A stretch of DNA of 63,762 nt, counting the filler, from Collodictyon triciliatum (lineage: Eukaryota): assembly GCA_043381765.1 (NCBI GenBank). It is 5 parts of 5 records of this genome, joined end to end, with 100 filler letters (N's around TTAATTAATTAA, not from the genome) between each part and the next. Parts side by side here need not be neighbours in the genome. Positions count along the whole stretch, not along the records: positions 17,664 to 36,995 come from JBHJMP010001444.1; 4 more parts are not named here. One strand, written 5' to 3'. Below, piece after piece: positions 10,801 to 63,575 of this stretch. The notes beneath the pieces were generated by a model. That model did no database searches and had not been told where the DNA came from. It saw nothing but the letters and a program-made list of their open reading frames with translations. Numbering within the stretch: position 1 is the stretch's first letter; each line of letters begins with the position of its first letter. A program made the translations under genes and the position numbers.

Positions 10801-13800
10801 ATATGAGAAGATTGCTGGGTATGCTTTCGGGAAGAGCTGTAATCAACATGAAAAAAAAAGATGTGTTGCTTGAATAAGAAATTATAGAATCATTCACAAT
10901 ATACCTACTGTCGAAAAAATTGTTTTGAGCTATGATGCCTCTCAAGGATGCAGAGTCTTTGAAGGTGGGTATTGATCCTATGGTTCAAATGAATTGCGCA
11001 CACATTAAACTACTATACCAAGGACATGTCTTGTGGATATCTGAAGTGTATTAGATAGAGGTCTTTTTGGTATACCAGTGAGTCGGTTATTGTTTATCAC
11101 AATACTTTCTAGGTTGCGAAGTGACATAAAATCTGATATTGGTCCTTTGTTGAAATAAATGTGAATAATGATATCGTCATGGTATATACATGTGATAAAG
11201 TATGGCTAGTCTCACCAATAGTTGGTAAATCGTATTTCATATTTTAAAGAATGGAGACCATGTAAGATGAATACCTTCAAATCGATTATTCTCTATGTCT
11301 ATGTTCACCAACGAAGGTAAATACGAAGGTGGTAGCACGCCTAATCATAATAAATTATAAGGAAATAGGTGATTTATTCACACATACCTAATAATTTTTC
11401 CCATGAACACAGCCACGATGATATTTTTGTGTACCACTAAAGTTGTTCATGCTTAAGTGAATTTCCTGAATTCTGGGTAGCTCAAGATAAGGGAGTTCAC
11501 CTTTTGAATTAAAATACAGTCAATACAAACCCTGTTATTCATGTCATCCAAATTGAAGAAAATCAAGGGGGAAAGAATAGGAATATAAAGCAACTGGCTG
11601 GAAATATGTACACGAAAAATCTGCGACGTATTAGCATCAAAATAAAGAAAGCTTACCGGAAAGCTCATTTAAGCTAATGCTAATATTCTCGATGAGAGTC
11701 AAGTTTTTGATGTCTGGGATGCTTCCTTAAATTCGACGTGCAAAGTAAATAAATGAAAATTAAGACTTTGATATAGTAATAATAATATCAGTGATAATAA
11801 TAAATTGAACGAGAAAGAACTATGAAATTTTTTGATTATTTGATGAAGGGCTCACCCCTTAAACGATTGAAGCTCATAAAGTATATCAGCAGAAATGGAT
11901 TATTTGTAACTGGAGCAAGTACTCCTGTTTTAAGGAAAATTAAGAGCCATTATTACCGGCGAGGAAACACATATGAATTACTATATATTCATTCACACCA
12001 GAAAACGAGTTCCCCCAGCCAATTATGGAGCGCAGTTCGAATGAATTGGGTAAGGCAGGTACCCCGCCTTAATAGAAAATATGATTTATGAGCCAAATTT
12101 TTTTGTTGAAAAAATTAATTAACAACAAGGATGAGATTGTACTCGGGAATAGGTATTTTATCTTTCTTATTAACGAGTTCCTTAACCACCTTCGAAGTTG
12201 TTTTCTGAAAAAACAAAGTATTCCAAAGAGCTGTAGTTGAGCATACTTGGTATTGTCCCTGTTGCGATAATAAATATATTGATAATGACTTGTGATTAAA
12301 TAAATATTGATTTAAGTGCATCACTCCTCGATTATTCCATTATTCATGGTAGATATCTGTTCAGACTAACCTGATAAATAGTTTGTGTATATGTGCAGAG
12401 TAAGGACTTTCTCAGGATAACGAAGAATAGGAAAATCACCTAGGTATATATCAATTTATTCAATTTACTTTTCAGTACCGATAATGATGCCAGATGCATT
12501 ATCATGACCATTAAACTCAGAAACCTTTCAGGTTGTTAATCTCGATGAATATCTCTTCTAATACGCCGCAATTAGAGAAAGATGGTATGGTGCCTAGAAG
12601 AAAGTTATATGTAAAATGAATTAATCACGGAATAAGATTTTGATTAAAAGTCAAGTTTTCTTTCAGATTTTTTTAAATTACCTGTAAGATTGTTTTCTCC
12701 TAAGGAAATTCGTTCAAGCAAAGGCAAGCAACAAAAGTTTGGTATATTCCCTAGAAGATTACCGTACTTACAGACTTTAATAATCTTGCCAAAGTATGAG
12801 AATGAAACAGAAGTTATATATTTTTCTTATAACAGAGTTATTAAAAAATTGAACTGATTTTGAGTAAAAAGAAGTCCAACCTGAAAGATTATTAATTCTT
12901 GAGGACAGTTTCCTTAGTACTGGTAATTCTGTGAAATCGGGAATATTTTCTGTTTGCCGTTATTAAAAATTGGAAGTAAGAGATGTGATAATATAATATA
13001 ATTAAGATGAATTTTGAGAAATTAAGATAAGGCACACTAAGTAAATGTTTCTGAATTATCTGCAGCTTTCATAGGCGGGTTTGACTCATTCACCTGATAA
13101 CATATTGCCTCTTATTTCCAGCACTTCTAGCTTCGGCATGTGTTGGAAATTTGGGATGAACCCTGGTGGAAATATGCCAGCAGATATTTAAGTAGGTTAA
13201 ATAAAAGGTTTCACAGACTCTCAAAAAAAGTATTTTTTTTTTTTTTACAAATTAATATTCGATAATAGTGGTCTGATATTATGATTAAAGAATCAACCAT
13301 GCAATTTGTTTTGCATAAGTATCAGATCGACCAAATTCGGGAGCTTCATATCAGGTATCAGTCCGAATATATTGTTAAAGGAGAAGTCTACAAGTGTGAG
13401 CAATGGCATCATCTCCAAGTATACAGCAGCATCACTCATCAAACCCGTAGCATTAATTCCCGCATCTTTGTGACGCTTCAGGTCGATCTTAATTACATCA
13501 CAATCACCAAGCTAATATTTTGATGATTCAATGAGTAAATTTAATATAATATAATAAAATAAAATATATAATTATATAACGATGATTAAGGATAGCCTAG
13601 GTAAGGAAATTTGAGGCTAAAGGCGAGCAGTTTCATGCACAATTGGCAACAGCGTACAATATATGATATGCATACCAAACACGTGGCATTGTTGCATCTC
13701 GAAGTGTCACATGTAACTCCGAACCAGGAACAATAACACACTTTCCGTTGGTTCCAATTAAAGCTGACCGACCAAAAATCTCCGTGAAGTGCATCATACA

Positions 13801-14495
13801 ACCCGCCTAAAGCGTCGTAAGGGTTGATCCCAAGCCTACTCACAGATCGGTTCGCATATACGGCCTCTTTATTTTCAAGTGCCGATGTGTAAGGGTTTGC
13901 AAAGTCGTCAGCGTGTCCATTTTCTTCGCTTGATTGGTCATCACATTCGTCGTTATGCATTTCCAAGAGCAAAGCTATGGCTGAGTCTCTATCCATGTTC
14001 TGGATGCTCCTTTTGTCCAGGGAGCAGAGACCATCAGCGTCTTTGCTGTTGAAGACAATATAATAAACAAAATGCGTCTAATTATTTTTGTTATTATTAT
14101 TCTTAATATTATTATTATTGTTGTTTGTTGTTTGTTGTTTGTTGTTTGTTGTTTTGTTGTTTGTTGTTTGTTGTTTGTTGTTTGTTGTTTGTTGTTTGTT
14201 GTTTGTTGTTTGTTGTTTGTTGTTTGTTGTTTGTTGTTTGTTGTTTGTTGTTTGTTGAAAGCCTTGCCATTGAAATCCGGAGAGTTGCCACTCTTTTTTC
14301 ACACGTATTATTCTTGTAATATCACACACAAAGACGTCAAGAGCTGCGAATAGCGAAATGGTGGGAAGAGTATGTTGTGCATCTATGGAGCAAAGACTAC
14401 CTGGCAACAACAGAGCCTACGAAGCCGGCAGCGCACAGAATCAGCACCGGTGCAATGAGCAGCAGTTGCGAGCGCTTCGAGAGGAACGTCGCCAT
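7820..14495 (-). CDS. Receptor-like membrane protein: signal peptide + plant-type LRR ectodomain + Cys-rich region + multi-TM C-terminus
   Basis: Exon 1 encodes a signal peptide (MATFLSKRSQLLLIAPVLILCAAGFVGSVVA). It is followed by an LRRNT cap (DALGGLYDALHGDFWSVSFNW..CYCSWFGVTC), ~20 GxIP..LxxLxLxxNxLxG repeats, a Cys-rich part (CRCLPGYYG; CEEGYTGRVCSKCKPGYGK) and a TM region with WYLNGYPWLRC, RFGFLFVGYR and YQWEVIALVRRL motifs. Stop at 7820. Confidence 0.85.
14118..14256. repeat. (TTGTTTGTTG)n intronic microsatellite
   Basis: Directly visible, in the first intron of the LRR receptor gene. Confidence 0.95.
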
Positions 14496-17563: not shown

Positions 17564-17663
17564 NNNNNNNNNNNNNNNNNNNNNNNNNNNNNNNNNNNNN
17601 NNNNNNNTTAATTAATTAANNNNNNNNNNNNNNNNNNNNNNNNNNNNNNNNNNNNNNNNNNNN
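17564..17663. other. Artificial contig linker (N-run + TTAATTAATTAA + N-run)
   Basis: A 12-mer with stops in all six frames at 17608-17619, flanked by N runs. Genes on both sides are cut. Confidence 0.95.
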
Positions 17664-23729: not shown

Positions 23730-29203
<5,474 letters not shown>

Positions 29204-29504
29204 GCTTCTTTCTTTCTTTCTTTTTTCTTTTTTCTTCCTTTTTTTTTCCTTTACAGTTCTCCCTTATTGCAGTGGTTTTCTGCTAGGTGTTGTGTGTTGC
29301 GGCGTTTCTGACTTGCTCGTCTTTGCAGTCGGGTTGGCGGGAGTCTGCAGTCTCGAGGCAACTTTTTGGGTGGTGGTGTGTTTGTGTGTATTTGCGCGTG
29401 AGCTGAAAAAGAAGATGTTGAAGCTTTGGAGTGGGCGGATGGGGTGAAGGATTAGAGGATGTTGTTGGATAATGTTATGAATCGGCTGCCTTGCAAAGTT
29501 GTTT

Positions 29505-29603
29505 CCTTTTCTTTTCTTTTTTCTTTTTTCTTTTTTCTTTTTCTTTTTCTTTTTCTTTTTCTTTTTCTTTTTCTTTTTCTTTTTCTTTTTCTTTTTCTTT
29601 TTC

Positions 29604-29664
<61 letters not shown>

Positions 29665-29780
29665 NTTTCTTTTTCTTTTTCTTTTTCTTTTTCTTTTTCT
29701 TTTTCTTTTTCTTTTTCTTTTTCTTTTTCTTTTTCTTTTTCTTTTTCTTTTTCTTTTTTCTTTTCTTTTTCTTTTCTTTT
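29505..29780. repeat. (TTTTTC)n microsatellite
   Basis: Directly visible. Confidence 0.95.
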
Positions 29781-30536
29781 CGATCTATTTTGGTCAAAGC
29801 TTCTGGTTGGTGAGAAAAGGCGGCTATCTGGAAGTCGGCTATGGACAAAGATTGCAGCCTTGATAATACTGAAGAACAAGACACGCCGCCCCGTGAAAGC
29901 GCCACACCCGCGCAAAGGAAGGACGACAGCAAACTCTGCGCGTGAGGCAAAAAGGAGCCCCGAGAGAAAGCAGATGCGTGATCAGTGCTGATTTGTGCGG
30001 GACGGATTCAAACATTCAAAGTGTCGCCGAAGATGGTATGGATGACCGCTCTTTGGCATAAGGAGGGCAATGAGCAAGTAAAGTCAGAGTCACAGACGCT
30101 CGTTCGCCAGATGCAAGGTTGGATTCTGCTTGTATTATAGATATGTCGATGGATGTATTGTGCCGGGTAAAGAAAAAGCTTAAGGATCTTCTAGAGGGTA
30201 TGTATGTGTCACAATGTCGCAATGATTATCATTCATTATAAGCCGAAAAGTGGATTCGCATATATATATATATATGAGTAATTCGTGGTTGGCTTTTGTT
30301 TGATTGCTCTTTTCTTTTCAAATAAGGCTTTTCAAAATAACTAGCGTGTATATTTGCGACTTAATATTATATGTATGATGGTATGTGTTATTTCGGTTTT
30401 TTCGATTCAAAGAATATGGGTGATATGTTAAAAGCCTGCTTTTTATTTTCCTTGCAGGAGAGCAATCCAATCGGCAATTCCATAGAGCCATATTCTGAAG
30501 GCTGTAAAAGTGGTCGACCGCCTCCTTGGGTGCTGC

Positions 30537-33500
30537 TTAGGCACCTTCCTCTGCACCTTCCTCTTCATCTTCCTCTTCACCTTCATCTTCACCTCCATCT
30601 TCACCTTCCTCTTCCTCTTCCTCTTCCTCTTCCTCTTCCTCCTCATCCTCGTAGGAAATAATCTCTTTCGCCTCGGCTATCCTATCCTCACTGAGTTTAG
30701 TTTGCGAATGTTTTAATCCGTGCACGCCTTTGAAAACCATGTTTGCCTTTTCATACACTTCCAACGCCTCGCGGTATCTACCGAGACTTTTATATGTGTC
30801 TCCAATATTGAAATAGGTATTTCCTACTTCATGATGCATTTCACCGAATACAGAAAGTCTGATTTCAAGTGACTTTTGCAAATGTTCCAATGCCTTCTCA
30901 TACCTAGTTTTATGTTATTTCATTATGCAAATATGGACAACATGTACCCACAAAAAATGAAACAAATGCATCTAAACAAATCAAACTTTGCAAGGCTCCT
31001 GTAAACCATTCCTATGTTGTTATTCAATGCAGCTAAAGTGTGATGCATATCCCCAAACACTTTTATTTGAATCTCAAGAGACTTATGGTAGTATTCTAAT
31101 GATTTCTGATGCCTAATGGAAACCATTTTTAAAGGCTTAAATATAATTTTTCTTGAAAAAAGGCATAACAAAAACACCGAAGGCATACTTTCCCATGGCA
31201 AAGTACAGAGTCCCAAGGCTGTTGTAAGATTCAGACACGTCCTGGTGTATTTCCCCAAACATCTTCAATCGAATGTCCAGCGATTTTTGGAGACACTCCA
31301 GAGCCTTTGCATGCCTGAAATTCGGTGCATAAACTTTTTACAAATATAAAAAAAAATATAAAAAATGACAAAAAGCCATACTTTCCAAGATTCTTGTAAA
31401 CTGATCCAATATTGGCATATCCTGCTGCCACGTAATTGTGTGTTTCCCCAAAAACTTTTATTTGTATCTCTAGTGATTTATTGTAAAACTCCAGCGAAGT
31501 TTCATTCCTACGAAACGTGTAAGTTGAACAAAATTTATCACAGTAATTGATTCAGAACATGTCGAATCAGCATACTTTCCAAGATTTTTATAGACCATCC
31601 CTATATTTGCATAAGATGCTGCTACATCGGGGTGCATCTCCCCGCAGAGTTTTTGTCTAATTTCCAGCGATTTACGATACTGCTCCAGAGCCATGTCTTG
31701 CCTTGGATAGTATATTAATTAATAATAATAATAATAAATTATTAAAAGCTTAGAATGATGGGCATAAAAACATGAGAATCTGCAACAAATTTACTTTCCA
31801 AATTTACTATATATCATCCCGATGTAGTTGTATGAAGCCGCTACATCAGGGTGAATATCTCCAAATATCTTCTGTCGAATTTCGAGTGATTTGCGACACT
31901 TTCCTAATGCCTCCTCAAACCTAACAAACAGTCACTCTTATCAAACCAGTAATAAGATTTTATTTTTTTTTTTAAAAAAAAAGGACATACTTTCCAAGAT
32001 TCTTAAAAACCAATCCAATATTATGATGGGACATCGCAACTGTGTGATGGAATTCTCCAAATAGCTTCAATTTTATTTCAAGTGATTTATTGTAAAATTC
32101 CAGAGCACTTTCATGTCTAAAAAAGTATTTTTTTAGTTTGTTTGTTTGTTTGTTTGTTTGTTTGTTTGTTTGCTTGTTTGTTTGTTTGTTTGTTTGTTTG
32201 TTTGTTTGTTTGTTTGTTTGTTTGTTTGTTTGTTTGTTTGTTTGTTTGTTTGTTTGTTTGTTTGTTTGNNNNNNNNNNNNNNNNNNNNNNNNNNNNNNNN
32301 NNNNNNNNNNNNNNNNNNNNNNNNNNNNNNNNNNNNNNNNNNNNNNNNNNNNNNNNNNNNNNNNNNNNNNNNNNNNNNNNNNNNNNNNNNNNNNNNNNNN
32401 NNTTGTTTGTTTGTTTGTTTGTTTGTTTGTTTGTTTGTTTGTTTGTTTGTTTGTTTGTTTGTTTGTTTGTTTGTTTTTAAAAAAAAAAGGGCCTTAAATA
32501 TTAGCTATCCAAATTTGTGAAAATCAGCCATACTTCCCAAGATTGCTATAGACAACTCCTATGTTATTGTAAGACTCGGCTACAGAATAATTCGTTTCTC
32601 CATATTCCTTTTCCCGTAAGCCGAGTGATTTTTGATGGTATTCAAGCGCTTTTGCATGCCTTACAACGATTCGGTGCAATTAATCGATAAATATGACATT
32701 AAATATGGAAATAAAGGAAAATAACTGGATATTTCATCAAACAAACTTTCCGCAGTCACCATAAACGAGACCGATATTGTTGTACGACTCAGCAACTTTT
32801 GGGTGAGTCTCTCCAAACACTTTTAGGCGAATATCCAAAGATTTATTCAAGCTATCAAGTGCATTATCATATCTATCAAAATGTTAAATTAGTTAATTTT
32901 ACATTCGAAGAAATTATAAACAATAAACAAGACAAACTCTGCAAGCTTTCTATGAGCCAGACCCAAGAAATTCAAATTCTCACTGATGGAACCTAGGAAT
33001 ATCAAAATATGTGTGACTCATCATGAAATGCAAACAGTGATGGCTTCACATGCATAGAACCTTCATCTGCGTCGGCTGAAACGCGGTGTTTAAGAATTGG
33101 AATTAAAAAGGCGTTTTCTTGAATATCCCGAAAGTATTTCACCAGGGAAAGTCCAGCGATATTTAATTTCTAAATTACAATAGTAAGTGCATTAAAATAG
33201 AAAAAATGCTTTATTTTTTTGAATATGCTTATTATCACCTTCGTCATCTCCTCGTATGCAACTTTGTCGTTGAACCCGTTTTTGTTTAGGTCTCTCCAAC
33301 ATTCAAAAAACTCGTAGCGATAGTTTCCATCCAATAATTTCTCCACAACCTTTAAGAAATAATGTATTCCATAAATTTCAGAAATATGAATGAGAATAAA
33401 ACAAATGAAAAAACTTTCTTATAAACTGACTTTTTCGTTTCTCAAAAAAACGTCTAGTTTTTTATATTCGCTTGAAATTCTTAATGTGTGGCATATTTCA

Positions 33501-36500
33501 GCAGCGACGCCCGTATCATCAGTCTCAGTTCCATGTTCACTTAGCAGCCATAGTCCATACTCGCGAGCTTCCTCTGTAATCTGAGTTTCATGTGTAAAAT
33601 ATCGCTCTTTGATCGATTCCGTCAACAACTGATGGGAGATGGCATATCTATGAGCATCAAACATTTGAATAAACTAGAAAGACAATAAAACCACTAGAAA
33701 AAAAAAAGGCAGCATGTCACACTTACCTTCCATTCCTTACAAAAAGAGAATCCAGCAGAACAAAAAGGAACGATTTCCTAAAGTGGTGTGAGAAACGGTA
33801 ACAGTATCTTTGTTAATTTATCGGGTTTTTATTTTTTGTGTCTAAGAGAAGCAATGGCATCTTAACAAAATCGGCAAATATGAAAAGAGAAAAAAATCAC
33901 CAAGTTGTCTGGTTGATTTGCTGGCTGATTTGATTCAGTCTATGCAACATGTATTTGTCCAGTTCGTTTTCGTCAAGCCCGATTCGTGATACGTAAAGAA
34001 CACTGATAGACAAACGAACAAGGTCTTTTCCTAAAGGTCATCAGCCAGCTATGTCACTCAGGTACATTTTGAGTTACTTTGATGAGATTCATACGAACCA
34101 TATTTATTTTCCCAGCGGCCCATCACAAGGTCAAATAATTTTACAACGCCCTTTGTCGCCAACATCTCGTGGAGTTCAATATCTACCCTTTCGTAAATCC
34201 CAAAAACGCGGAGTTCATCCAAAACAATGCGCAAGTAAAGTGGATGGCCTGATGTTATGTATATAATAAAGATCGATTACATGACACATATGATATATTT
34301 TCGTCTGCTTACCGGTGTCTTCTTGGTCACTGAGAATCATATCCATCTGTTTCCTGTTCAAAGTTTTGTTATAACGTTTAAAAAAGGATATTGTAGCTTG
34401 TTCGATTCCGCTTGCATCAAGCTTAGAAACAAAGATGACATCAAGTCCAAATGATCTGGCGATCTAAATAGTGGGGGGTTAGCATTGATTGATCAGTATT
34501 AATAAAACCCTGGATGAAATAACAGACTTTGCACGATTCATGGCTATCAATCGTCGACGCCACAATCGAAATGTTCGTTGGTGTTTTCTTCGGAAGCCAT
34601 TCAAGGCGATGAACATGCTTGTATTGCTGAGAATCCACCAGTTGGTTAAAGGCATCGATGACTAAGACAACTTTCTTTTGCCTAAAAGTAATTGGGCAGG
34701 AATCATTGGTTTACATAACAATTCAAATGAGGTATTGAATATTCAAATTTACATATTTCTAGATGCGAGTTTGAGAATATAGTCTAGCCCTTTATCCAAC
34801 TCCTCTTTTCCTACAACACATCGAAAACAAAGTCCCAAATTAAAAACCATATGGAAATTTGGAATCTGATTGATGACGATAGTATCCCTGTTAATTCGAA
34901 AAATTCGGCAAATACATTATATTCAGACCTTCTACCGAGTTCAGGGTCAGCTCAATCACACCATTTTCAACTAGAGAACGAGCCACGCGTTCCACCAAAC
35001 TATGCATATTTCAGTTTGATTTGATAGAAAGGTCAAAATTTTAGAATTTAAATAAACAAATATTACTTTTCAACGTAATTACTCAAGTTTGAGCAACCGA
35101 CAAAGTGGTAAATGACAACTAAATTCGACTCTTTTCTAGTTGTCAGATCACGAATAAGCCCGCTCATAATAGTTGATTTTCCAATCCCAGATTCAGCTCC
35201 AACAACCGTAATATCAGAGTCCTCAAGGTCAAGTTGCCGCATGACTCTTTCATTTAAAATAGCCAGAATATTGTCTCTTCCTTCCAATCCAATCAGTCTA
35301 TGTCTCATAAACTGCTCGTGTGCGATATCTTCAGAATTCTTATCCTACATATCACACGGGCTTAAGTATCGCAAAGGTTCCAAAATAAAAAAAAACCGTC
35401 CATATAAAATAGAGGAATAGGAATCAGCATCGAAATCGTGTATTAACCTCTTGGTCGGGGAAATCTTTGTCAATTGCCTCGATCAAGTCATCCACCACCA
35501 TAACAACTAATTCTTTCGGAGTCTTGTATGGTTTGACAACATGAATATCTCCAATTTTCTTCTTTAGACCATCTTGATTTTCTTTCTAAATTGGAATCAA
35601 ATTATGGAATCGATACAAGCATGAAATTCCGAGGGGAAATAATAGAGTAAAAGTATTTGGTTTAGGGGCCGAGTGGCTTGATGTTAAATTAAAAATCCTT
35701 ACGTCCTTTTCATTTACTGGGCGATATAACGCCCGTTCAGCATCGGTCTCTGCAACATGATTGACTGCATGTTCTTCATCACGAGAATAAAAGAATGCGC
35801 GCCGAGCCACAGCATTATCTTTTAGAGCACCGTGAACAATCTAGATTTCAATCAAAGAGGGAGAAAATTATGGAAGATTTTCATGAGGTTATTGGCAATT
35901 GATTCGATGGAAATATACAGACTTCATAATCAGTCACGCTGAGACCCCTAATTTCCTTGAGGTAAGGAAACTTCAAGTCCGTATCAGGATGCCACTCGGT
36001 AGGATTTTCATAATTTGGAGACCATCCATAACGTGAGCCGAGTGTACATAGAAAGTAAGGACACTCCTCGATGGACTCAAGACAGCTGATAACGACCTGA
36101 GCAGACAAGGCAGAATATTCATTAGAGACGAAGGAGGGAAATCATAGTAACTGTATATTAATTTGGATCAACCAGACCAGTCCATTTTCGGATATTTCAC
36201 TGGTCAGCCCCCAGCGTAAGTCGATGAAAACCAAGATGAGGCCCTTCTTCTTTGCAAAATCTTTGAGTCTGAACATATTTTTTTGATTTAGTTTAGTAGA
36301 TATTATTCTATCTATAATATGACGATTGATGCAAAATTATTGGAAACGTGAGTCATGGCAAGGCATACTTCTTTTCAGCATTGGCGAAAAATTCGTCCCT
36401 TTCTCTTTGCATATCACGAAAAGTAGACGACATGAATATTCTCAAGACTCGTGTATCATGCACTACAGACCACTTCGCTTTTCCGTCACAGTAAAAAGAG

Positions 36501-36613
36501 TCTGGAATAACAAATCCATTATTTTTTGATGGTACTTCGAGTCCGTTGATCGAAACTACTAATTCTTGGATTTCGGTCTCTGCTCGTGTAGGTCGAGTCC
36601 AAGGGCAACCCAT
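30537..36613 (-). CDS. DUF4062 - NACHT/STAND NTPase - TPR protein (NPHP3/TTC41-like, NLR-like architecture)
   Basis: The protein starts MGCPW. DUF4062 motifs are RIFMSSTFRDMQRERD, FIDLRWGLT, CPYFLCTLGSRYGW and SVTDYE. Walker A is GAESGIGKST and Walker B is VVLVIDAFNQL. About ten 42-aa TPRs (KSLEIRxKxFGExHxxVAxSYxNIG) precede an acidic tail. Confidence 0.9.
32137..32475. repeat. (GTTT)n microsatellite with an internal N gap, in a TPR-array intron
   Basis: Directly visible. The same motif occurs at 57035-57186. Confidence 0.95.
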
Positions 36614-36995
36614 TTCTTTGTTGCCGAATTGCTTCTTGCTTTCCTTTTGATATTTAGATGTGTGAGAATAGATATTTATGTGTCCGGGTTTCAAAGAACA
36701 GGTTAATTCCAACAGGAAAAGCTTTGACAACAACATATCTATTGTATTTCCTTGATGAATGATGATTTTTTCATTTTGCGGATTTATTTGACTGAAAATA
36801 AGCTGAAGTAGAGAATAAATAGAATATTTGGTTGCGTGCTTCAAAATATTTGCAGTGTTTGTTTCCTGAATTTAAATTTTCCAATAACTTGAGAATTAGT
36901 ATAGTTATTTACATTTATCTGCAAGGCAAGGAGGATAAAATGACTCTCCATAAACAATTCCCAAAAAAAAAAAAAAGAAGGAATAATTATACTTA

Positions 36996-37095
36996 NNNNN
37001 NNNNNNNNNNNNNNNNNNNNNNNNNNNNNNNNNNNNNNNTTAATTAATTAANNNNNNNNNNNNNNNNNNNNNNNNNNNNNNNNNNNNNNNNNNNN
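36996..37095. other. Artificial contig linker
   Basis: TTAATTAATTAA at 37040-37051 between N runs. Confidence 0.95.
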
Positions 37096-38959: not shown

Positions 38960-40200
38960 GAATGAATGTCAGCGGATATGGGAACTACTGCTTGTTGGAT
39001 TCGAGAATATCTGATGGTGCTTGGTTGCCAAAACCTGAACAATCCTGCATAAACCGAGGGAAATGTATTTTATTTTTATTCCTCCCTTCAATTTTGTGCA
39101 GGATAATTGGGATTGCGGTTTGGGTTCGCTAGCCATCGTTTGCATGGACGCTACTTGGTGGCCGGGTGGCGGAGAAGTGGTTGGTAATCAGGAATTGCAT
39201 CCTGCAGTTTGGCCTGTAGCCTGGGTCTTGTGCTTGCATGAGACATACAAGGCGAGGTTTAATATCCTTCTCAGCTTTTTTTCCACATGTCTCTTCTCAC
39301 GGGGTCGGAGTAGTAGAAAACGTGCAGGTGGCGAAGGAAGCTGTTGAGGAAAGAGATTTGTATCATATCATCCAGCCTGTTATCTGGAATGAGTGGCTGG
39401 TTGTTGAGTCTTGCTTTGCGTGAGTATATGCGCGCTATCCACATAGTCCATAGCAAATGGCCTCGTGTCACCGCCCAGAATGTTTTTGCATCGGATGCAG
39501 CTGTTGCAGAGGCCCAAATATCGCCTGGATTGGGACAACAGCCGCAGCCGTCTTGAGTGTCAGTCAAAGAGTCTAACCAGCTGTTTCGCGCAGGTTTTGA
39601 GCGAAGGGACATTGCACAATGTATGCTCAATCATTCATCACCGTTGCTGCAAAGTGTGCATTGTTGGGAGACTTTGCCAGCTTTTGCCGCGCGTGTGCTT
39701 ATACATGATATTTCACCCCGAATTGATAAACTGGCATAGAGAACCAATTGAATTCCTAGGGCGAGTGTAATTCCTTCAGCCACCCCTGATGACATCATAC
39801 AAATCTCTTTTCTCAACAGCTTCCTTCGCCACCTGCACGTTCTCTACTGCTCAGACCCTGTGAGAAGAGACATGTGGAAAGAGGCTGAGAAAAAGATATT
39901 ACCTCGCCTTGTATCTCTCATGCAAGCACAAGACCCAGCCTACAGGCCAAACCGCAGGATGCAAACTCTGATGAGTGACTACTTCTCCGCCACCCGGCCA
40001 CCAAGTAGCGTCCATGCAAACGATGGCTAGCGAATCAAAGCCAGCATCTCCACCATCCTGCAATAATTGAAAGGATAAGAAAAATCATCTGAAGGACGAA
40101 TTAGTGTTTTATTTTACACCTGCCCAATATATAATTGCTCTGTGATTCAGGTGATGTCTTTCCTATATGTGTGGCGTTGGCAGCAAGCAGAAGTCCCATC
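38960..40200. mobile_element. Two degenerate LINE-like (zf-RVT-type) 3' remnants in head-to-head orientation, forming a long inverted repeat
   Basis: The minus strand reads, across frameshifts, QCTLCSNGDE-IEHTL-CPFAQNL ... HLLWTMWIAR, the CxxC-H-C / WxxWxxR pattern of L1/Tx1 ORF2 C-termini. 39085-39370 is the reverse complement of 39790-40075 with scattered differences. Confidence 0.65.
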
Positions 40201-54649: not shown

Positions 54650-54749
54650 NNNNNNNNNNNNNNNNNNNNNNNNNNNNNNNNNNNNNNNNNNNNTTAATTA
54701 ATTAANNNNNNNNNNNNNNNNNNNNNNNNNNNNNNNNNNNNNNNNNNNN
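54650..54749. other. Artificial contig linker
   Basis: TTAATTAATTAA at 54694-54705 between N runs. Confidence 0.95.
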
Positions 54750-56328: not shown

Positions 56329-58768
56329 CGAAAACGTATAAGTACAAGAATGGGGAATCAGGAGTATGCAATAGACCACATCGACACACGAGAAACCCCA
56401 GAGATTTCAGGCTTACAGGGACTTTCGCACTTTCCCTAGAGAGTAATGGACATGTTGTTCACGACGGTCAACTACCGAGTTCACGATTTGCTGAGGCTTG
56501 CCTCTATTGCCATTTTCATGAAATGGAATGATTATTGGCTATGACTGTAACTTATTGACTCCAGCGTGGGGGGAAAAAAGTATGAAGGGAAATAAGACAG
56601 AGCCGATGGACAATTCTGAAGGCAAAACTATACGTTGCTGCATCTCCTCCGTTCCAAATGAGAGACTTCTTCACGGGCTCTTCTTCGTAGGGGAGTTTGT
56701 ATCCGAATGCAAAGGATTTGGGATCGACTCGAGTAGTGCTCCAATCATATCCTCTTGTTCTTTGTTCGCCTGATAGCATGATACAGTTGATTCATATGCG
56801 CAGTCACTTCAAACATGTCTGCGGTATATATTGAACCAGGAGCAGGTGATACGGAATAAAAAAAAAATCGCATAGTATAGTCCCCATCTGCATGAGATAG
56901 AATAAAATCGTTATAATATGTGGGCGATTGTGTACCAGAGTCGTAGTCACGATGTGTTTTTTTGTACAATTCTTTAGCAGCCGGGTCTTCCTGGTGTTCC
57001 AGTGGATACATGATGTCTTTGGCGGGAGGGCCTGTGTTTGTTTGTTTGTTTGTTTGTTTGTTTGTTTGTTTGTTTGTTTGTTTGTTTGTTTGTTTGTTTG
57101 TTTGTTTGTTTGTTTGTTTGTTTGTTTGTTTGTTTGTTTGTTTGTTTGTTTGTTTGTTTGTTTGTTTGTTTGTTTGTTTGTTTGTTTATAGATATGAGAG
57201 GGATTATATTTGGATTGTCAAGCATGCATTCTAATCTGAATGTTTCGATGAGTATGTCTTCGCTAACAGTTTTGTTTTCTTGTTTGGAATAGTGAACACA
57301 TGCAAAATGCAAACATGGCTCAGGTGGATGACCAAACGAGAAGCCTGGCTCATAGACTCGATCAGGATAGGAGTAATTGCGGGATAAGCTACGACCCAAG
57401 GGAGCGTTCTATTTTGATGATTAACAGTATGTTAGAAACCCCTCAAATTAAGATTACTCGACAAGAAGCTATATGAAGGTGATGATTTATTGTTTTACTT
57501 TCATCGCCAAGCATTTTATAGAAAGAAAAATAAAAACAAAAATTAAAAAAAAAAGCCTGCCTTAATTCATATATATTGAGAACTGAAGTCTCACCTTGTG
57601 GGAATGATATATAGACTCTTTATGCTCGATAGCTGCTTGAGCGAAATTAGATATCGGCTGTGGGTTCAGCATCACATTGACCTGTATTATAAAAGAAAAT
57701 GACGGTGCTACTCATTGAAAGTCTGGATATAATTATAAAGAAAAAGAGCGGAAATATGTCGACGAGCTTCGTGGGCGATTCAGACATCTACATACACCGT
57801 ATGTGTAATGAATGCGGTCCCCGTACGCCTCTGACTCTGCCTGGAACGGTGGGTCGTCGGCTCGTCCGGGATGCCTCACTGTGACGCCTACAAGAAATGC
57901 AGACACAGAATCAGCATACAGGAGCAGATAAAGAAAGAAAAAGAGAAATACTTTAATTGGCATTGCTCTACACAAGAACTGACAAGACATTATATGGTCG
58001 ATTATGATATTTTCTGTTGGTGTCATATTAATTCTGAATTCAATTGCAGTTCATCTTGGATTAATTCGATTCCAGTGTGTTTCATTATTCGCCATTCAAG
58101 AAGTGAACTATCGAACGTCTGAGTGTGGCTTTGGCTTTGGCTTTGAATAAAAAAAATATATGTATAATCGAGAAGAACAAAGGACAAAAGAGAAAGCGTC
58201 TTCTTCAGCATGCAGGATATACCTGGAGATCCGCGTCCAGAGAGTCTATATTTGCGCATGTGTTCGGGCGTTGGTGGAGGATCTTCTGGGTTCATGCAGT
58301 CTGCAGTGGATTCGAACGGACGATGCGTTAATCTTCCAGCCTAAATGAGTAGCAAGGTGATGAATACTTGGGGGATGGATCATAGTGCGCTTGGAGGAAA
58401 GACTTCCAGTTTGGTTGAATGTGTTTTTGGCGTCGTATTCTTCCATTCACCCTGTCTGTGCAATGTTACTGAGGATTCTCTTATTGAGTGTTATACTGAC
58501 TGTGAGTTTTTTTTCATCATTGTGGATTCTTATTTGAGGTATTTTTGGAGAGTTTATTGTAAATGTGAGTTGACAATATGTGCCTTTTTTTTCTCGTTTT
58601 ATGTAAATATTGAAGATTTTCTTTTGATTTCTTTTTTTAAGGAACAGGTTACATCATGAAGGATAGTTCATTATTATTAATAAAAAAAATAAGAAAAAGT
58701 ACCGTGGTGAGTCCGGCACAGGTTTCGCGGACGGGATTGATGTTGTTATTTGCAAGAAGCTCTGACAT
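55042..58768 (-). CDS. EFHB: EFHB / CFAP21-like ciliary protein
   Basis: Motifs include PPTPEHMRKYR, KESIYHSHK|NAPLGRS, ELYKKTHRDYD.GEQRTRGYDW, QQPDPDLG, RTFGTPSIRSDL and NYGDE.AAKNVVNPNRF. The gene ends VSLDSFRKHLPSVY*. Confidence 0.85.
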
Positions 58769-59639: not shown

Positions 59640-59739
59640 NNNNNNNNNNNNNNNNNNNNNNNNNNNNNNNNNNNNNNNNNNNNTTAATTAATTAANNNNN
59701 NNNNNNNNNNNNNNNNNNNNNNNNNNNNNNNNNNNNNNN
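59640..59739. other. Artificial contig linker
   Basis: TTAATTAATTAA at 59684-59695 between N runs. Confidence 0.95.
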
Positions 59740-60608: not shown

Positions 60609-63575
60609 CTAATCGTCTCCTTGGCCTCTCTCCTCTGAGTCGATGGCAGCGTCGGGCCTGTTTCGCTCCATGGGGTACTTGTCCAGGCATCGCAACCAGT
60701 CGGAGACTCTGCACATAATACAGCACATGGAAACCCAGAGAAGAAAATTAGAAAAAAAAATGGATGACAAAAAAGTGTCATCAGTGTAGTCACCCTCATT
60801 AGATCACTTCACATCAATAAAGCAGAAAGAGTCCTCTTCACCAAATACCAGAATATGTATTCCATTCATCAAAACAGTGTTACTGTCCAGCATTCGACTG
60901 TATTGGCTATGTCATCTTTATTGCATTCATCTCTAACTTACATGAACTGTGTTCTCTCTGTCTCTAAGATGTGCGGGATGATATACTTCCTTCGGAATTC
61001 GGTCTTTGTGCCCTATGTTGTAATGTAAGCTCGATTGATTATTCTATGTATGCGAAGCATAGTAAAAAAAACTGCTTGGGACACTGTAAAGATAGGAATA
61101 CATTCCAATGAGGTGTATGTGCATGGAAACTTATGGGATTATCCGCGTACCTCCACTTTCTCGTCAACGAACAACGGTTCCTTGTTCCGATATCTGCTTT
61201 CGTATCCCTTATAGTAGCACTGGAAGAAGAATAAGAATAAGAAATTATTTCTACAACATATATATTTGACTTTATTGACTGTGTTTAGTCGTGAAAAAAA
61301 AAATCCGGGTAATAATGACATATAACGCAAGAAATTTAATTAGCAGTTGGCTGCAAATTCTAATCTCTGGCAGATATCGTAAAAAAGAAGCATTTTAATC
61401 TAAAGAATGTATATTCGGTACGGATCAAGCGAAATGCTAATGAATTGCTTCTTAAATAGGCTAGAGAACAACACTTGTTATTGTTATCATAACAATTAAT
61501 TAAAATCCAAAGTATTTTACTTTTTCAAGAAACAGGCCAGTTGCTGGTGCCATTGGCGTCTTCATAATTTTGGGCAACATTGTTTCCATGAAATTATCCT
61601 CACTCAAATCACCCCGGACGACAGATACAACCGTGCCTTTTTTTATACTTCGTGTCAGTAACTCATTTCAGAATGAAGAAAGGCTGACTTCATAGTTATA
61701 TGAGTACGAAATGGGCCTTCATGTGAAAAAAAAAAGTACATTGGAGGTAATACGTGTTAAATACTTTGAATATTCAGAAATTACCGGAATTCTAAAAAAG
61801 AACTATATAGAAAAATTCAACAAACGTACCGACCATCTTCCTGATTTGATGAAGCATAAAGCTTTGTCCAACAACCGTCATTAAAACAACTTCAAATCCA
61901 TTTTGTTCAAACGGCTCGCTACACTTTTGACACACGAAAAAAAATGTATGAATTACATTAAATAAACGAAGAAAAATTAGTATTATCAAATGCTTTGCTT
62001 AAAAGAGAGTAATCATAATACATCAAAGTTTATGAAACAGTCATATACTTCAAACGATTGAATGACTCTCATCGAGCTTGGGTCTGCAGCTTTCTTTTGC
62101 ACAGTGTAGTTATGGAAGTTGTGTGTACCATCAAATTTTGCTAAGGTTCTTCTTATTAATCCAAGATTTTCTCGAGAAAGCTTAAAATCTGGGGCATAAA
62201 TGGTGTGTTGTTCTACAGGACCGGTGTTTGCAGGAGCAAAAGCAAAAGTGGGTATCATATAGCTGTATTTTCTCCCTTCACAATGATTTTTTGCATTAAA
62301 GGAACCAGTCACACGGGAGTAATCTATAATTCGAATTTTAAACTGTTAATATATCTTTTGGCCTAAAATTATTCAGTAGGTTTGTTATTATATATCTATT
62401 ACATTGCATAGTATCACCATCTCGATATACATATCAGTTTTTAAAAATAGCGCAATTTATATATATATATATTTTTTGCAAATTATTAAATTATTTTGGA
62501 ACAGAAACTTCTACATTTTGGATTCCACTATTTTTTCCTTCATATCATAGTAATATTACCTATGAATCGTATTTGTTCAGGAAGGTGCTGATTGATGCTT
62601 TCGATGATGTTGGGTATCATCAAAGCCTTCACAGTGACAATCTATGGGTAAATTTTGGGCATTTTATCATCCAATTGCATTCGTTTAGTCACAAACAGAT
62701 TTATTTTCTCCTTAATTCGATTCAAAGAGTCACAAACACAATAAATTAATTGATTCAGCGAAACGTTAAGATTTTTTTTAATAGTTTCTTTGATTTCAGG
62801 CCACCTGTCCAAGCGCGCTGACACCCTTATCAGTTCGAGCGGCCCTTTGCCATCCAATCTTTTGAAAGAAAAATATGTTTAATAGTACGCTCTTTGAATC
62901 GAATATGGATAAAAAAAATTGGTTAATAGTACGCTGATAAGTATTGTAAGTTATTATCTTTGCCCCTCTATCTCTCCTTAAATGCAAAGAATATAAAAAT
63001 TAATATAAAGACAGCTGAAATGGTTTATAGAATAAATCACTTTGTGAAAATCCCCGTGATTGTCTGCAGATACCACCCCAGCTTTGAACATGGCCAGTTC
63101 CATCTCACCTTCCAGTGTTTTAGCTCCCGGATTACTATTGAGACATAAGATAAATAGAGGAAATCTAAGAAATTATGTTTATTATAGAAAACAAATGCAT
63201 ATAAAACTGTTTAATCAAAGATTGACACATAATACGCTATCAATAGTCCTTCACACGAGACGGAAAGTTCTAATAGAAATAGAGTCTATGAGCACTCTAC
63301 TATCTATTCACCTTCAAACCCCTTACGTACTTTATGTCGAAAGAAAGAGCTATGCAAACGAGGCAAGAAGAAGAACAAGAAAAAGAAGAAGAAAAAAGAA
63401 AACATCTTTAAAGTCAATAGCGAGCGCCTTACTTTTGGAGACCTTGATAGCCCTCTCCGTTGTAAGAAACCAACAAAGCGATTTTTCTTTTGGGGTAAGG
63501 ACTTCTTTTGGACTGCCCAGCCTCTTCCTGATCCTGCTCGGATCCTTTTTGGCTCCCAAAATCCTCATTGTGCAT
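60609..63575 (-). CDS. PUS1: tRNA pseudouridine synthase Pus1 (TruA family)
   Basis: Motifs [19 protein letters not shown], catalytic [53 protein letters not shown] and [10 protein letters not shown]. Stop TAG at 60609-60611. Confidence 0.93.

Follow-up and report, generated by a model that had tools for sequence, protein, structure and literature searches.

Receptor-like genes that give each tetratricopeptide repeat (TPR) unit an exon of its own have been described in brown algae. In Ectocarpus, 124 TPR exons of 126 nt (42 residues) are spread over 13 NB-ARC-TPR loci, whose introns also carry inactivated TPR exons (Zambounis et al. 2012, PMC3341825), and brown-algal ROCO genes show splice variants of their leucine-rich repeat (LRR) exons (PMC11378527). 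Another body of work concerns DUF4062, which, in the available parts of two recent reports, has been renamed NIR and is described as a TIR-like NADase that serves as effector in some bacterial Avs2 proteins and in other defence systems and is active in human TEP1 (bioRxiv 2026.09.04.749371; 2026.05.01.722283). The NIR domains of PsAvs2 and TEP1 are reported to be NADases, and eukaryotic NIR domains to lie mostly at the N-terminus of NLR-like proteins (bioRxiv 2026.09.04.749371); mammalian NIR proteins comprise NWD1, NWD2, TEP1, and TTC41, with NPHP3 as a marginal member (bioRxiv 2026.09.04.749371; 2026.05.01.722283). Here, we analyze a gene of the protist Collodictyon triciliatum in which an exon-per-unit TPR array follows a predicted NIR domain and a NACHT-type nucleoside triphosphatase (NTPase). 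It lies on the minus strand of a 63.8-kb stretch of assembly GCA_043381765.1 (63,762 nt, five parts joined end to end; hereafter “the window”). We propose that its eight equal TPR exons are probably the historical trace of tandem duplication, inherited stably and, as far as the data reach, constitutively spliced.

The coding region spans positions 30537–36613 (−), from an ATG at 36613 to a TAA at 30537–30539, and its 26 exons add up to 3696 nt including the stop codon, i.e., an open frame of 1231 amino acids. Each of the 25 introns is GT..AG; lengths are 64–123 nt for 24, the exception being intron 19 (32117–32533, −), 417 nt long as assembled. Eight consecutive exons (E18–E25) are each exactly 126 nt long, preceded by AG, followed by GT, and terminated by the bases AA; the nine introns I17–I25 are in phase 2 throughout, giving every one of these exons symmetric phase 2-2 ends. 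In transcript order, they are located on the minus strand at 32747–32872 (E18), 32534–32659 (E19), 31991–32116 (E20), 31795–31920 (E21), 31576–31701 (E22), 31382–31507 (E23), 31189–31314 (E24), and 30987–31112 (E25). These coordinates, lengths, and boundaries are all as claimed in a preliminary description of this DNA, made from the sequence alone. Because none of the other 18 exons (51–367 nt) is 126 nt long and these barely share lengths among themselves, 138 nt being the only one to recur, a run of eight equal lengths is not attributable to chance. A further claim, that each exon is split inside the same Lys codon (AA|R), stood for the 3′ ends, since all eight exons end in AA, and fell for the 5′ end of the first, where the split codon is Glu (GA|A).

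Each exon encodes a 42-residue unit with the pattern x-x-x-A-L-..-K-S-L-x-I-..-F-G-E-x-H-..-V-A-x-S-Y-N-N-I-G-x-V-Y-..-G-K, and nine such units follow one another contiguously with zero spacing. The array extends beyond the eight exons on both sides. Upstream, the 55-nt exon 17 (32938–32992, −), which ends in phase 2 (GA|), carries helix A of the first TPR, as indicated by the gene model, the paralogue alignment, and a spliced joint at I16. Downstream, the terminal exon 26 (30537–30903, −), identified by Pfam TPR_12, holds a ninth full unit and a half unit, after which a brief unique sequence leads into an acidic E/D/G tail and the stop codon. In the 34-residue TPR register of Pfam, exons meet between TPR positions 16 and 17, and instead of one structural TPR, as first supposed, each exon covers helix B and the linker followed by the subsequent helix A.

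The predicted domain order is DUF4062/NIR, NACHT/NPHP3_N-type NTPase, helical region, about ten TPR_12 repeats, and acidic tail. Pfam scans were run on single window exons, and domain calls for the spliced protein rest on these together with the paralogues found in Diphylleia rotans (see below). The N-terminus (MGCPWT) and the putative NIR domain are encoded by exons 1–3 (35923–36613, −). Exon 3 passes the cut-off for DUF4062 (PF13271; 27.8 bits, cut-off 24.7) and exon 1 stays below it (17.4 bits), their matches being colinear parts of one domain for which the D. rotans paralogues score 36–44 bits. The motifs RIFMSSTFRDM, IDLRWG, GSRYGW, and SVTDYE are found across exons 1–3, and exons 1 and 3 match a single PDB chain, 11gz_A of TEP1 (E = 0.07 for exon 3, E = 0.18 for exon 1). 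The N-terminus of the D. rotans paralogue P0024 matches the same chain at E = 3.6e-15, with SVTDYE opposite SVTEME of TEP1. For TEP1, R908, R954, and R976 are reported as active-site residues and E1008 as the catalytic one (bioRxiv 2026.05.01.722283). An offset of 893 was the only one tried that puts these three positions on Arg residues of 11gz_A, and we therefore assign E1008 to the second Glu of the motif, an assignment of this analysis and not of that report. The corresponding Glu is invariant in all six aligned sequences (the window protein and five D. rotans paralogues); in the window protein it is Glu170, the last codon of exon 3 (35923–35925), inside SVTDYE, and two of the three active-site Arg positions are kept. 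Judged from this alignment, the catalytic Glu of the NIR domain is conserved in the window protein. Separately, the paralogue P0029 has lost most NIR motifs and retains the Glu.

The predicted P-loop NTPase is encoded by exons 6–9 (34528–35344, −) and assigned to the NACHT/NPHP3_N type from its motifs, Pfam, and the paralogues. Walker A (GAESGIGKST, K318) lies in exon 6 (35067–35344) and Walker B (VVLVID, D407) in exon 9 (34528–34681), both intact and conserved in the paralogue alignment. Taken alone, exon 6 scores 21.3 bits with NPHP3_N (PF24883; cut-off 24.8) and 16.1 bits with NACHT (PF05729; cut-off 26.7), and exon 9 scores 14.8 bits with NACHT, while D. rotans paralogues 38–47% identical to the model over the whole region pass these cut-offs (28.1–30.2 bits for NPHP3_N; 34.7 and 29.6 bits for NACHT). 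NB-ARC (PF00931) reaches 12.3 bits on the P-loop exon (E = 0.097), below its cut-off of 23.5, and is absent at E ≤ 1e-4 in five D. rotans paralogues and, for P0003, among the best 25 of 52 families. Exons 10–16 (33061–34463, −), which link the NTPase to the array, encode a putative helical region with the motifs GHPLYLR, WKSF, and RNGRY, colinear with the D. rotans paralogues. The terminal exon matches TPR_12 (PF13424) at 55.1 bits (E = 8.9e-15, cut-off 30.1), and the NPHP3 TPR model PF24885 (cut-off 100 bits) yields 27 bits on this exon alone, 134 bits on P0024, and 121 bits on P0026. The gene thus appears to be NLR-like and not NB-ARC, and its TPRs to be NPHP3-like in type without NPHP3 orthology. 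The initial identification of an NLR-like STAND gene with a C-terminal TPR array is upheld by the Pfam matches on exons and paralogues and by the colinear alignment with D. rotans.

Splicing was examined from contigs of public sequencing runs. The principal source (X1) is one run, represented by contigs only (hence no isoform ratios), whose RNA origin is a guess backed by its spliced joints, and which leaves parts of the gene uncovered, e.g., E19, E20, and E23. Its contigs contain 11 joints at which the skipped part reads CT..AC on the plus strand, and 11 of 11 correspond to model introns (I1–I5, I11, I13–I16, and I25). The joint 30901>30985 (cut +2) splices exon 25 to the terminal exon exactly at 30987/30903, confirming the E25 donor. 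A loose contig end at 32938 continues with 12 bases identical to the start of the first 126-nt exon (at 32872), confirming the E18 acceptor, and another at 34463 continues with 14 bases identical to the end of exon 9. In addition, a 379-nt contig of freshwater-metagenome DNA (X3) is colinear with 31477–31857 with 1 mismatch and 2 gaps; it spans exon 22 in full, its two flanking introns, and parts of exons 21 and 23. E19, E20, E23, and E24 are defined by the gene model and a hidden Markov model (HMM) of the unit. Introns I6–I8 are supported by frame and homology only; since the paralogue alignment has no unexpected gaps over residues 1–760, these three introns without RNA support can be considered validated.

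Small shares of the gene were also detected in eight freshwater and one subsurface metagenome runs (alignments examined for three). Two further contig signals were rejected: an X3 joint at 36098>36176 (GA..AG, side 21) fits no splice site and was set aside as a metagenome artefact, and a 20-nt loose end at 36645, considered as a spliced leader, resembles by eye a diverged genomic 5′ untranslated region, in a contig with 11 mismatches over 277 nt. At position 31803, both X1 and X3 contigs carry A where the window has T. The base is the third of a Lys codon at unit position 39 of exon 21, a TPR position that varies, and A would turn this Lys into Asn; as a lone strain difference, it carries no statistical weight.

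These contigs also bear on whether the array could be an artefact of assembly or reading, produced by collapsed or duplicated repeats or by chance frames. The window is joined from contigs, with several gaps of N's, including one within the array, where 134 of them (32269–32402) with (CAAA)n on either side interrupt intron 19 and may conceal an additional exon or other sequence. However, the nine units differ from one another by 32–48% in nucleotides and so are not assembly duplicates, the metagenome DNA contig runs colinearly across exon 22 and its introns, the RNA-derived contigs splice exactly at the predicted sites, and transcript-derived D. rotans proteins align colinearly with the translated array. 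We thus regard an artefact as essentially refuted and give it next to no probability.

Relatives of the gene were searched with phmmer, using the 92-residue P-loop exon as query, exhaustively over 1.84 billion representatives. Only 17 proteins were retrieved at E ≤ 1e-3: 12 D. rotans EukProt transcripts, each from a different Trinity gene, three short fragments (81%, 60%, and 52% identical), and two metagenome proteins. A later search added three EukProt Trinity proteins; outside the EukProt Trinity set, the best proteins were 25–32% identical to a D. rotans paralogue, one of them being named NACHT-WD repeat protein. A word-index search of longer proteins with the same exon returned 107 candidates, none significant. 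Over the non-TPR part of the model (residues 1–760), the D. rotans proteins are 30–49% identical, mostly over >600 residues and without unexpected gaps. Identity across more than 700 of these 760 residues is 44–47% for P0026, P0024, and P0022 and 30% for P0013 (an isoform of P0029), the best match reaches 49% over 607 residues, and there is no orthologue among them. Full-length D. rotans proteins exceed the cut-offs for DUF4062, NACHT and/or NPHP3_N, and TPR_12, and one paralogue carries extra WD40 propellers. From this sequence comparison, the gene is a member of a lineage-expanded NIR-NACHT-TPR family. Its attribution to a protist also holds, as the closest relatives of two unrelated window genes are D. 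rotans proteins: for a pseudouridine synthase exon at 62016–62345, the only detected homologue is a D. rotans protein with 64% identity. Together with the freshwater runs noted above, this places the window most likely in a freshwater diphyllatean akin to, yet not identical with, D. rotans. A metagenome scan with the terminal exon (483 pattern matches, reduced to 16 loci of 33–61% identity) did not yield relatives; the loci were classed as generic intronless TPR proteins because the units in 10 of 16 sit inside uninterrupted frames of 67–982 amino acids.

The family picture is central to another explanation, namely that the gene encodes a non-immune NPHP3/TTC41-type scaffold, for instance flagellum- or membrane-associated, in which NIR and NTPase would be regulatory and the exon pattern merely historical. 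NPHP3_N is indeed the best Pfam match of the P-loop exon, and P0024 and P0026 exceed the 100-bit cut-off of the NPHP3 TPR model. Moreover, the window protein (MGCPWT, 36596–36613) and D. rotans P0013/P0029 (MGVLVS) both fit the N-myristoylation pattern MGxxxS/T, and in human NPHP3 myristoylation directs the protein to the cilium. Diphyllateans are flagellates (PMC11603278), and human NPHP3 is reported to be without NADase activity in vitro (bioRxiv 2026.05.01.722283). Conversely, there are at least 12 paralogous D. rotans Trinity genes instead of one orthologue, which is not the single-copy NPHP3/TTC41-type orthologue that the preliminary description had set against its own reading. The nearest proteins outside the D. 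rotans set are just 25–32% identical, NIR keeps its catalytic Glu and two of its three active-site Arg positions, and lineage expansion, varied repeat arrays, and WD40 repeats in one paralogue form the usual signature of an NLR-like sensor family. On balance, we consider a scaffold of this kind unlikely.

Next, we evaluated the variability and age of the array. The preliminary description confined variation between repeats to one segment (AESYNN and its counterparts), whereas 15 of 41 unit columns have an entropy ≥1.75 bits, and just one of these lies in that segment. The more variable columns of helix A are at TPR positions 2, 5, 9, 12, and 13, which we take to be the concave ligand-binding face. 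A variable concave face is general to TPR proteins, and is not specific evidence for an immune receptor. Pairwise, the nine units share 52–68% of their nucleotides and 37–63% of their amino acids. The synonymous divergence (dS) is undefined owing to saturation in 27 of 36 unit pairs, with a third-position identity of 0.35 compared to 0.27 expected from composition, and because dS is saturated, ratios of non-synonymous to synonymous divergence (dN/dS) between repeats are not meaningful. Among the eight array introns free of gaps, similarity to one another is absent on average (mean z of 0.06 over 28 pairs). There is, then, no recent duplication, conversion, or shuffling within the gene.

We also looked for additional copies of the unit. 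The unit HMM, run in six frames over the whole window, detected nine full coding units, all in this gene, with nothing else below E = 0.58 and no pseudo-exons, and tblastn within the 63.8-kb window found no paralogue. That the window lacks a second copy says little on clustering, since its joined parts need not be neighbours. Applied to D. rotans, where it undercounts repeats as it was built from window units, the unit model detected units in ten proteins (2–9 each), with 4–9 units in seven contiguous arrays, 2–3 scattered units in two long proteins, and 0 in two truncated proteins, against 9 in the window gene. Mean amino acid identity between units is 51% within the window gene, 36% between the window and D. 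rotans, and 26–45% within single D. rotans genes.

Exon usage was assessed in both species. No exon skipping was seen among the 11 X1 joints, all of which join neighbouring exons and which cover one of the eight junctions after 126-nt exons, none of them between two 126-nt exons. For D. rotans, a species of a sister genus, an internal indel, of 42 amino acids or otherwise, was found in 0 of 13 isoform comparisons across seven Trinity genes, the isoforms being the listed members of 90%-identity clusters; differences consisted of terminal truncation or divergence. An 84-residue (2 × 42) difference between P0013 and P0029, considered as a two-cassette skip, turned out to be C-terminal divergence after residue 1178. 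Four of five truncation points inside D. rotans TPR arrays coincide exactly with a unit end, and the fifth lies two residues later, so that the truncation register is the exon register of the window gene. One truncated isoform ends exactly at the Lys of the split-codon position and another at a corresponding Arg, the residues expected when an AA|G or AG|G codon is read on into a GTAA.. intron; what follows in a third isoform resembles a translated GTATGC.. intron. The truncations can be read as retained introns and, if so, the exon-per-unit layout would be family-wide and older than the paralogues, although its products would be truncated proteins and not cassette combinations.

These observations bear directly on the possibility that the eight symmetric exons are used as cassettes. 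Any subset of them could be skipped in frame and, with an AA end meeting a purine start, the junction codon would always be Lys. The D. rotans family is multi-copy with differing repeat counts, and the variable helix-A columns are at the positions presumed to form the concave ligand-binding face. Precedents exist in brown algae, in the 126-nt TPR exons of Ectocarpus (PMC3341825) and the LRR-exon splice variants of ROCO genes (PMC11378527). However, no skip occurs among the 11 X1 joints, none of the 13 D. rotans comparisons has an internal 42-residue indel, and truncation at repeat boundaries fits intron retention. Exons and introns are anciently diverged with saturated synonymous sites, pseudo-exons such as those present in Ectocarpus introns were not found in the window, and neither was a second copy in its 63.8 kb. 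We therefore consider cassette use quite improbable. The combinatorial, exon-level diversification system originally suggested finds no support in this evidence: saturated dS, unrelated introns, no pseudo-exons in the window, no skipping joint, and 0 of 13 internal deletions.

A broader version combines several of these elements: diphyllateans would hold an expanded, NADase-armed NLR-like family in which symmetric one-unit TPR exons are kept as splice cassettes or as recombination modules between paralogues, thereby diversifying recognition. We judge this very improbable. If true, it would represent an independent second, or an ancient shared, origin of an exon-per-TPR receptor design whose descriptions have so far been limited to brown algae, and which is coupled here to a different NTPase class and a NIR effector in a deep branch near the base of Amorphea.

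Given these results, the explanation we favour, and hold to be probable, is that of a NIR-NACHT-TPR STAND gene with a history of tandem duplication, whose exons are stably inherited and constitutive as far as the data reach. In this view, the eight 126-nt phase-2 exons would be the footprint of an old tandem duplication of an exon-plus-intron unit, during which symmetric phase 2-2 ends would have kept the reading frame; the layout would have been inherited stably since then, and the TPR exons would be spliced constitutively, again within the reach of the data. By analogy with the NIR-STAND-TPR protein Avs2 and other NLRs, the TPR array may bind a ligand, upon which the NTPase would oligomerise and the clustered NIR domains would hydrolyse nicotinamide adenine dinucleotide (NAD+). 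We infer this sequence of sensing, oligomerisation, and NAD+ hydrolysis from the architecture, the conserved catalytic residues, and the work on Avs2 and TEP1.

Several observations weigh against this explanation, in whole or in part. As for stable inheritance, the intron pair I17/I24 is similar at z = 4.3, the sole exception among 28 pairs, and the differing repeat counts, together with units that are closer to one another within the window gene than to D. rotans units, indicate past growth or shrinkage by whole units. As for constitutive splicing, seven of the nine TPR-region introns (I18–I24) were seen neither spliced nor skipped in X1 contigs, unspliced forms do occur (one X1 contig reads through I10, and the one with the I25 joint extends 35 nt into I24), and the sample of D. 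rotans isoforms is a limited one. As for the proposed function, NACHT and NPHP3_N both fall below cut-off on the window's own single exons, NADase activity of the window NIR domain is a prediction from sequence, and purified human NWD1, NWD2, and NPHP3 are reported to show no activity in vitro (bioRxiv 2026.05.01.722283).

The surroundings of the gene are shaped by the way the window was joined. An artificial linker (44 N, TTAATTAATTAA, 44 N) at 36996–37095 lies 383 nt upstream of the ATG, and the same linker occurs three more times, at 17564–17663, 54650–54749, and 59640–59739; the linkers usually sit beside microsatellites, and TTAATTAATTAA provides stops in all frames. The promoter region may thus have been cut off, and genes on the two sides of a linker may not be physically adjacent. 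Long (CAAA)n/(GTTT)n microsatellites are found at 32117–32533, where the repeat breaks the assembly inside intron 19, and at ~56750–57190, and the same repeat type borders two of the linkers. Downstream of the gene, a 363-residue open frame (28172–29263, −) has an N-terminus that looks SAM-like by eye, followed by a very long low-complexity tract, and 29450–29990 is a nearly pure (AG/GA)n, poly-Lys-coding repeat. Two open frames at 9615–10445 (−) and 13589–14077 (−) show features of plant-type extracellular LRRs, namely a CSWFGVTCD cap-like motif and LxGxIP-style repeats, which suggest LRR receptor-like genes in this assembly. An inverted repeat at 39085–39372 / 39788–40074 has arms of ~290 nt (197 nt at 83% and 93 nt at 92% complementarity) spaced ~415–600 nt apart, and open frames in both arms encode a shared peptide (..CMDATWWPGGGEVV..); the repeat may represent an inverted fragment of a gene or a foldback element. 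Scanning the window for Rfam families and tRNAs gave no matches.

Compared with described systems, the window gene is closest in architecture to the D. rotans paralogues of EukProt EP00002 (e.g., P0026, P0024, P0022, and P0029), which are similar from end to end and share the 42-residue TPR period. They differ in TPR number, with 4–9 units in the seven whose arrays are contiguous and 9 full units in the window gene, and they are transcripts only, for which exon structure is deduced. With the mammalian NIR proteins TTC41, NPHP3, NWD1/NWD2, and TEP1, the gene shares an N-terminal DUF4062/NIR domain adjoining a NACHT-type NTPase and followed by repeats (TPR in TTC41 and NPHP3), as well as the position of the catalytic Glu; the sequence relationship is distant, and unlike these proteins the NIR-NACHT family is expanded in D. 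rotans, with at least 12 genes. The available text of the two NIR reports (bioRxiv 2026.09.04.749371; 2026.05.01.722283) makes no mention of an exon-per-repeat structure. Bacterial PsAvs2 likewise combines a NIR NADase effector, a STAND NTPase, and a C-terminal TPR sensor (bioRxiv 2026.09.04.749371), a likeness of architecture only, as this protein is prokaryotic, intronless, and a sensor of phage terminase.

For the exon layout, a literature search on exon-per-TPR NACHT genes returned only the brown-algal work and unrelated papers, and the brown-algal precedent cited in the preliminary description proved apt: the 126-nt/42-residue layout matches that found at NB-ARC-TPR loci in Ectocarpus (PMC3341825). 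Both consist of tandem 126-nt exons, C-terminal to a STAND NTPase, in a multi-gene family. The two nevertheless differ in several respects, and their lineages are very distant, the window belonging to Diphyllatea (CRuMs). Ectocarpus has NB-ARC, whereas the window gene has a NACHT/NPHP3_N-type NTPase with an N-terminal NIR/DUF4062 domain; Ectocarpus introns hold pseudo-exons, whereas none were found in the window, where the exons are anciently diverged. An Ectocarpus exon is described as a 34-residue TPR plus linker (PMC3341825), whereas the window junction falls between TPR positions 16 and 17; the available text of that paper gives no intron phase for the Ectocarpus exons.

Taken together, exon-per-TPR layouts (in brown algae) and NIR-NLR-like proteins (across eukaryotes) have each been described before, and the contribution here comes from an under-sampled lineage. 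The NIR(DUF4062)-NACHT-TPR architecture, lately recognised as an NADase-bearing NLR-like design, appears expanded in a poorly studied, deep-branching group of protists. On present evidence, array growth suffices as an explanation, so the locus adds a useful annotation and a point of comparison, not a new mechanism. With the 126-nt exon-per-TPR-unit layout recurring outside brown algae, next to a different NTPase, there is now a second lineage in which to ask if symmetric repeat exons reflect mere array growth or are exploited for receptor diversity.

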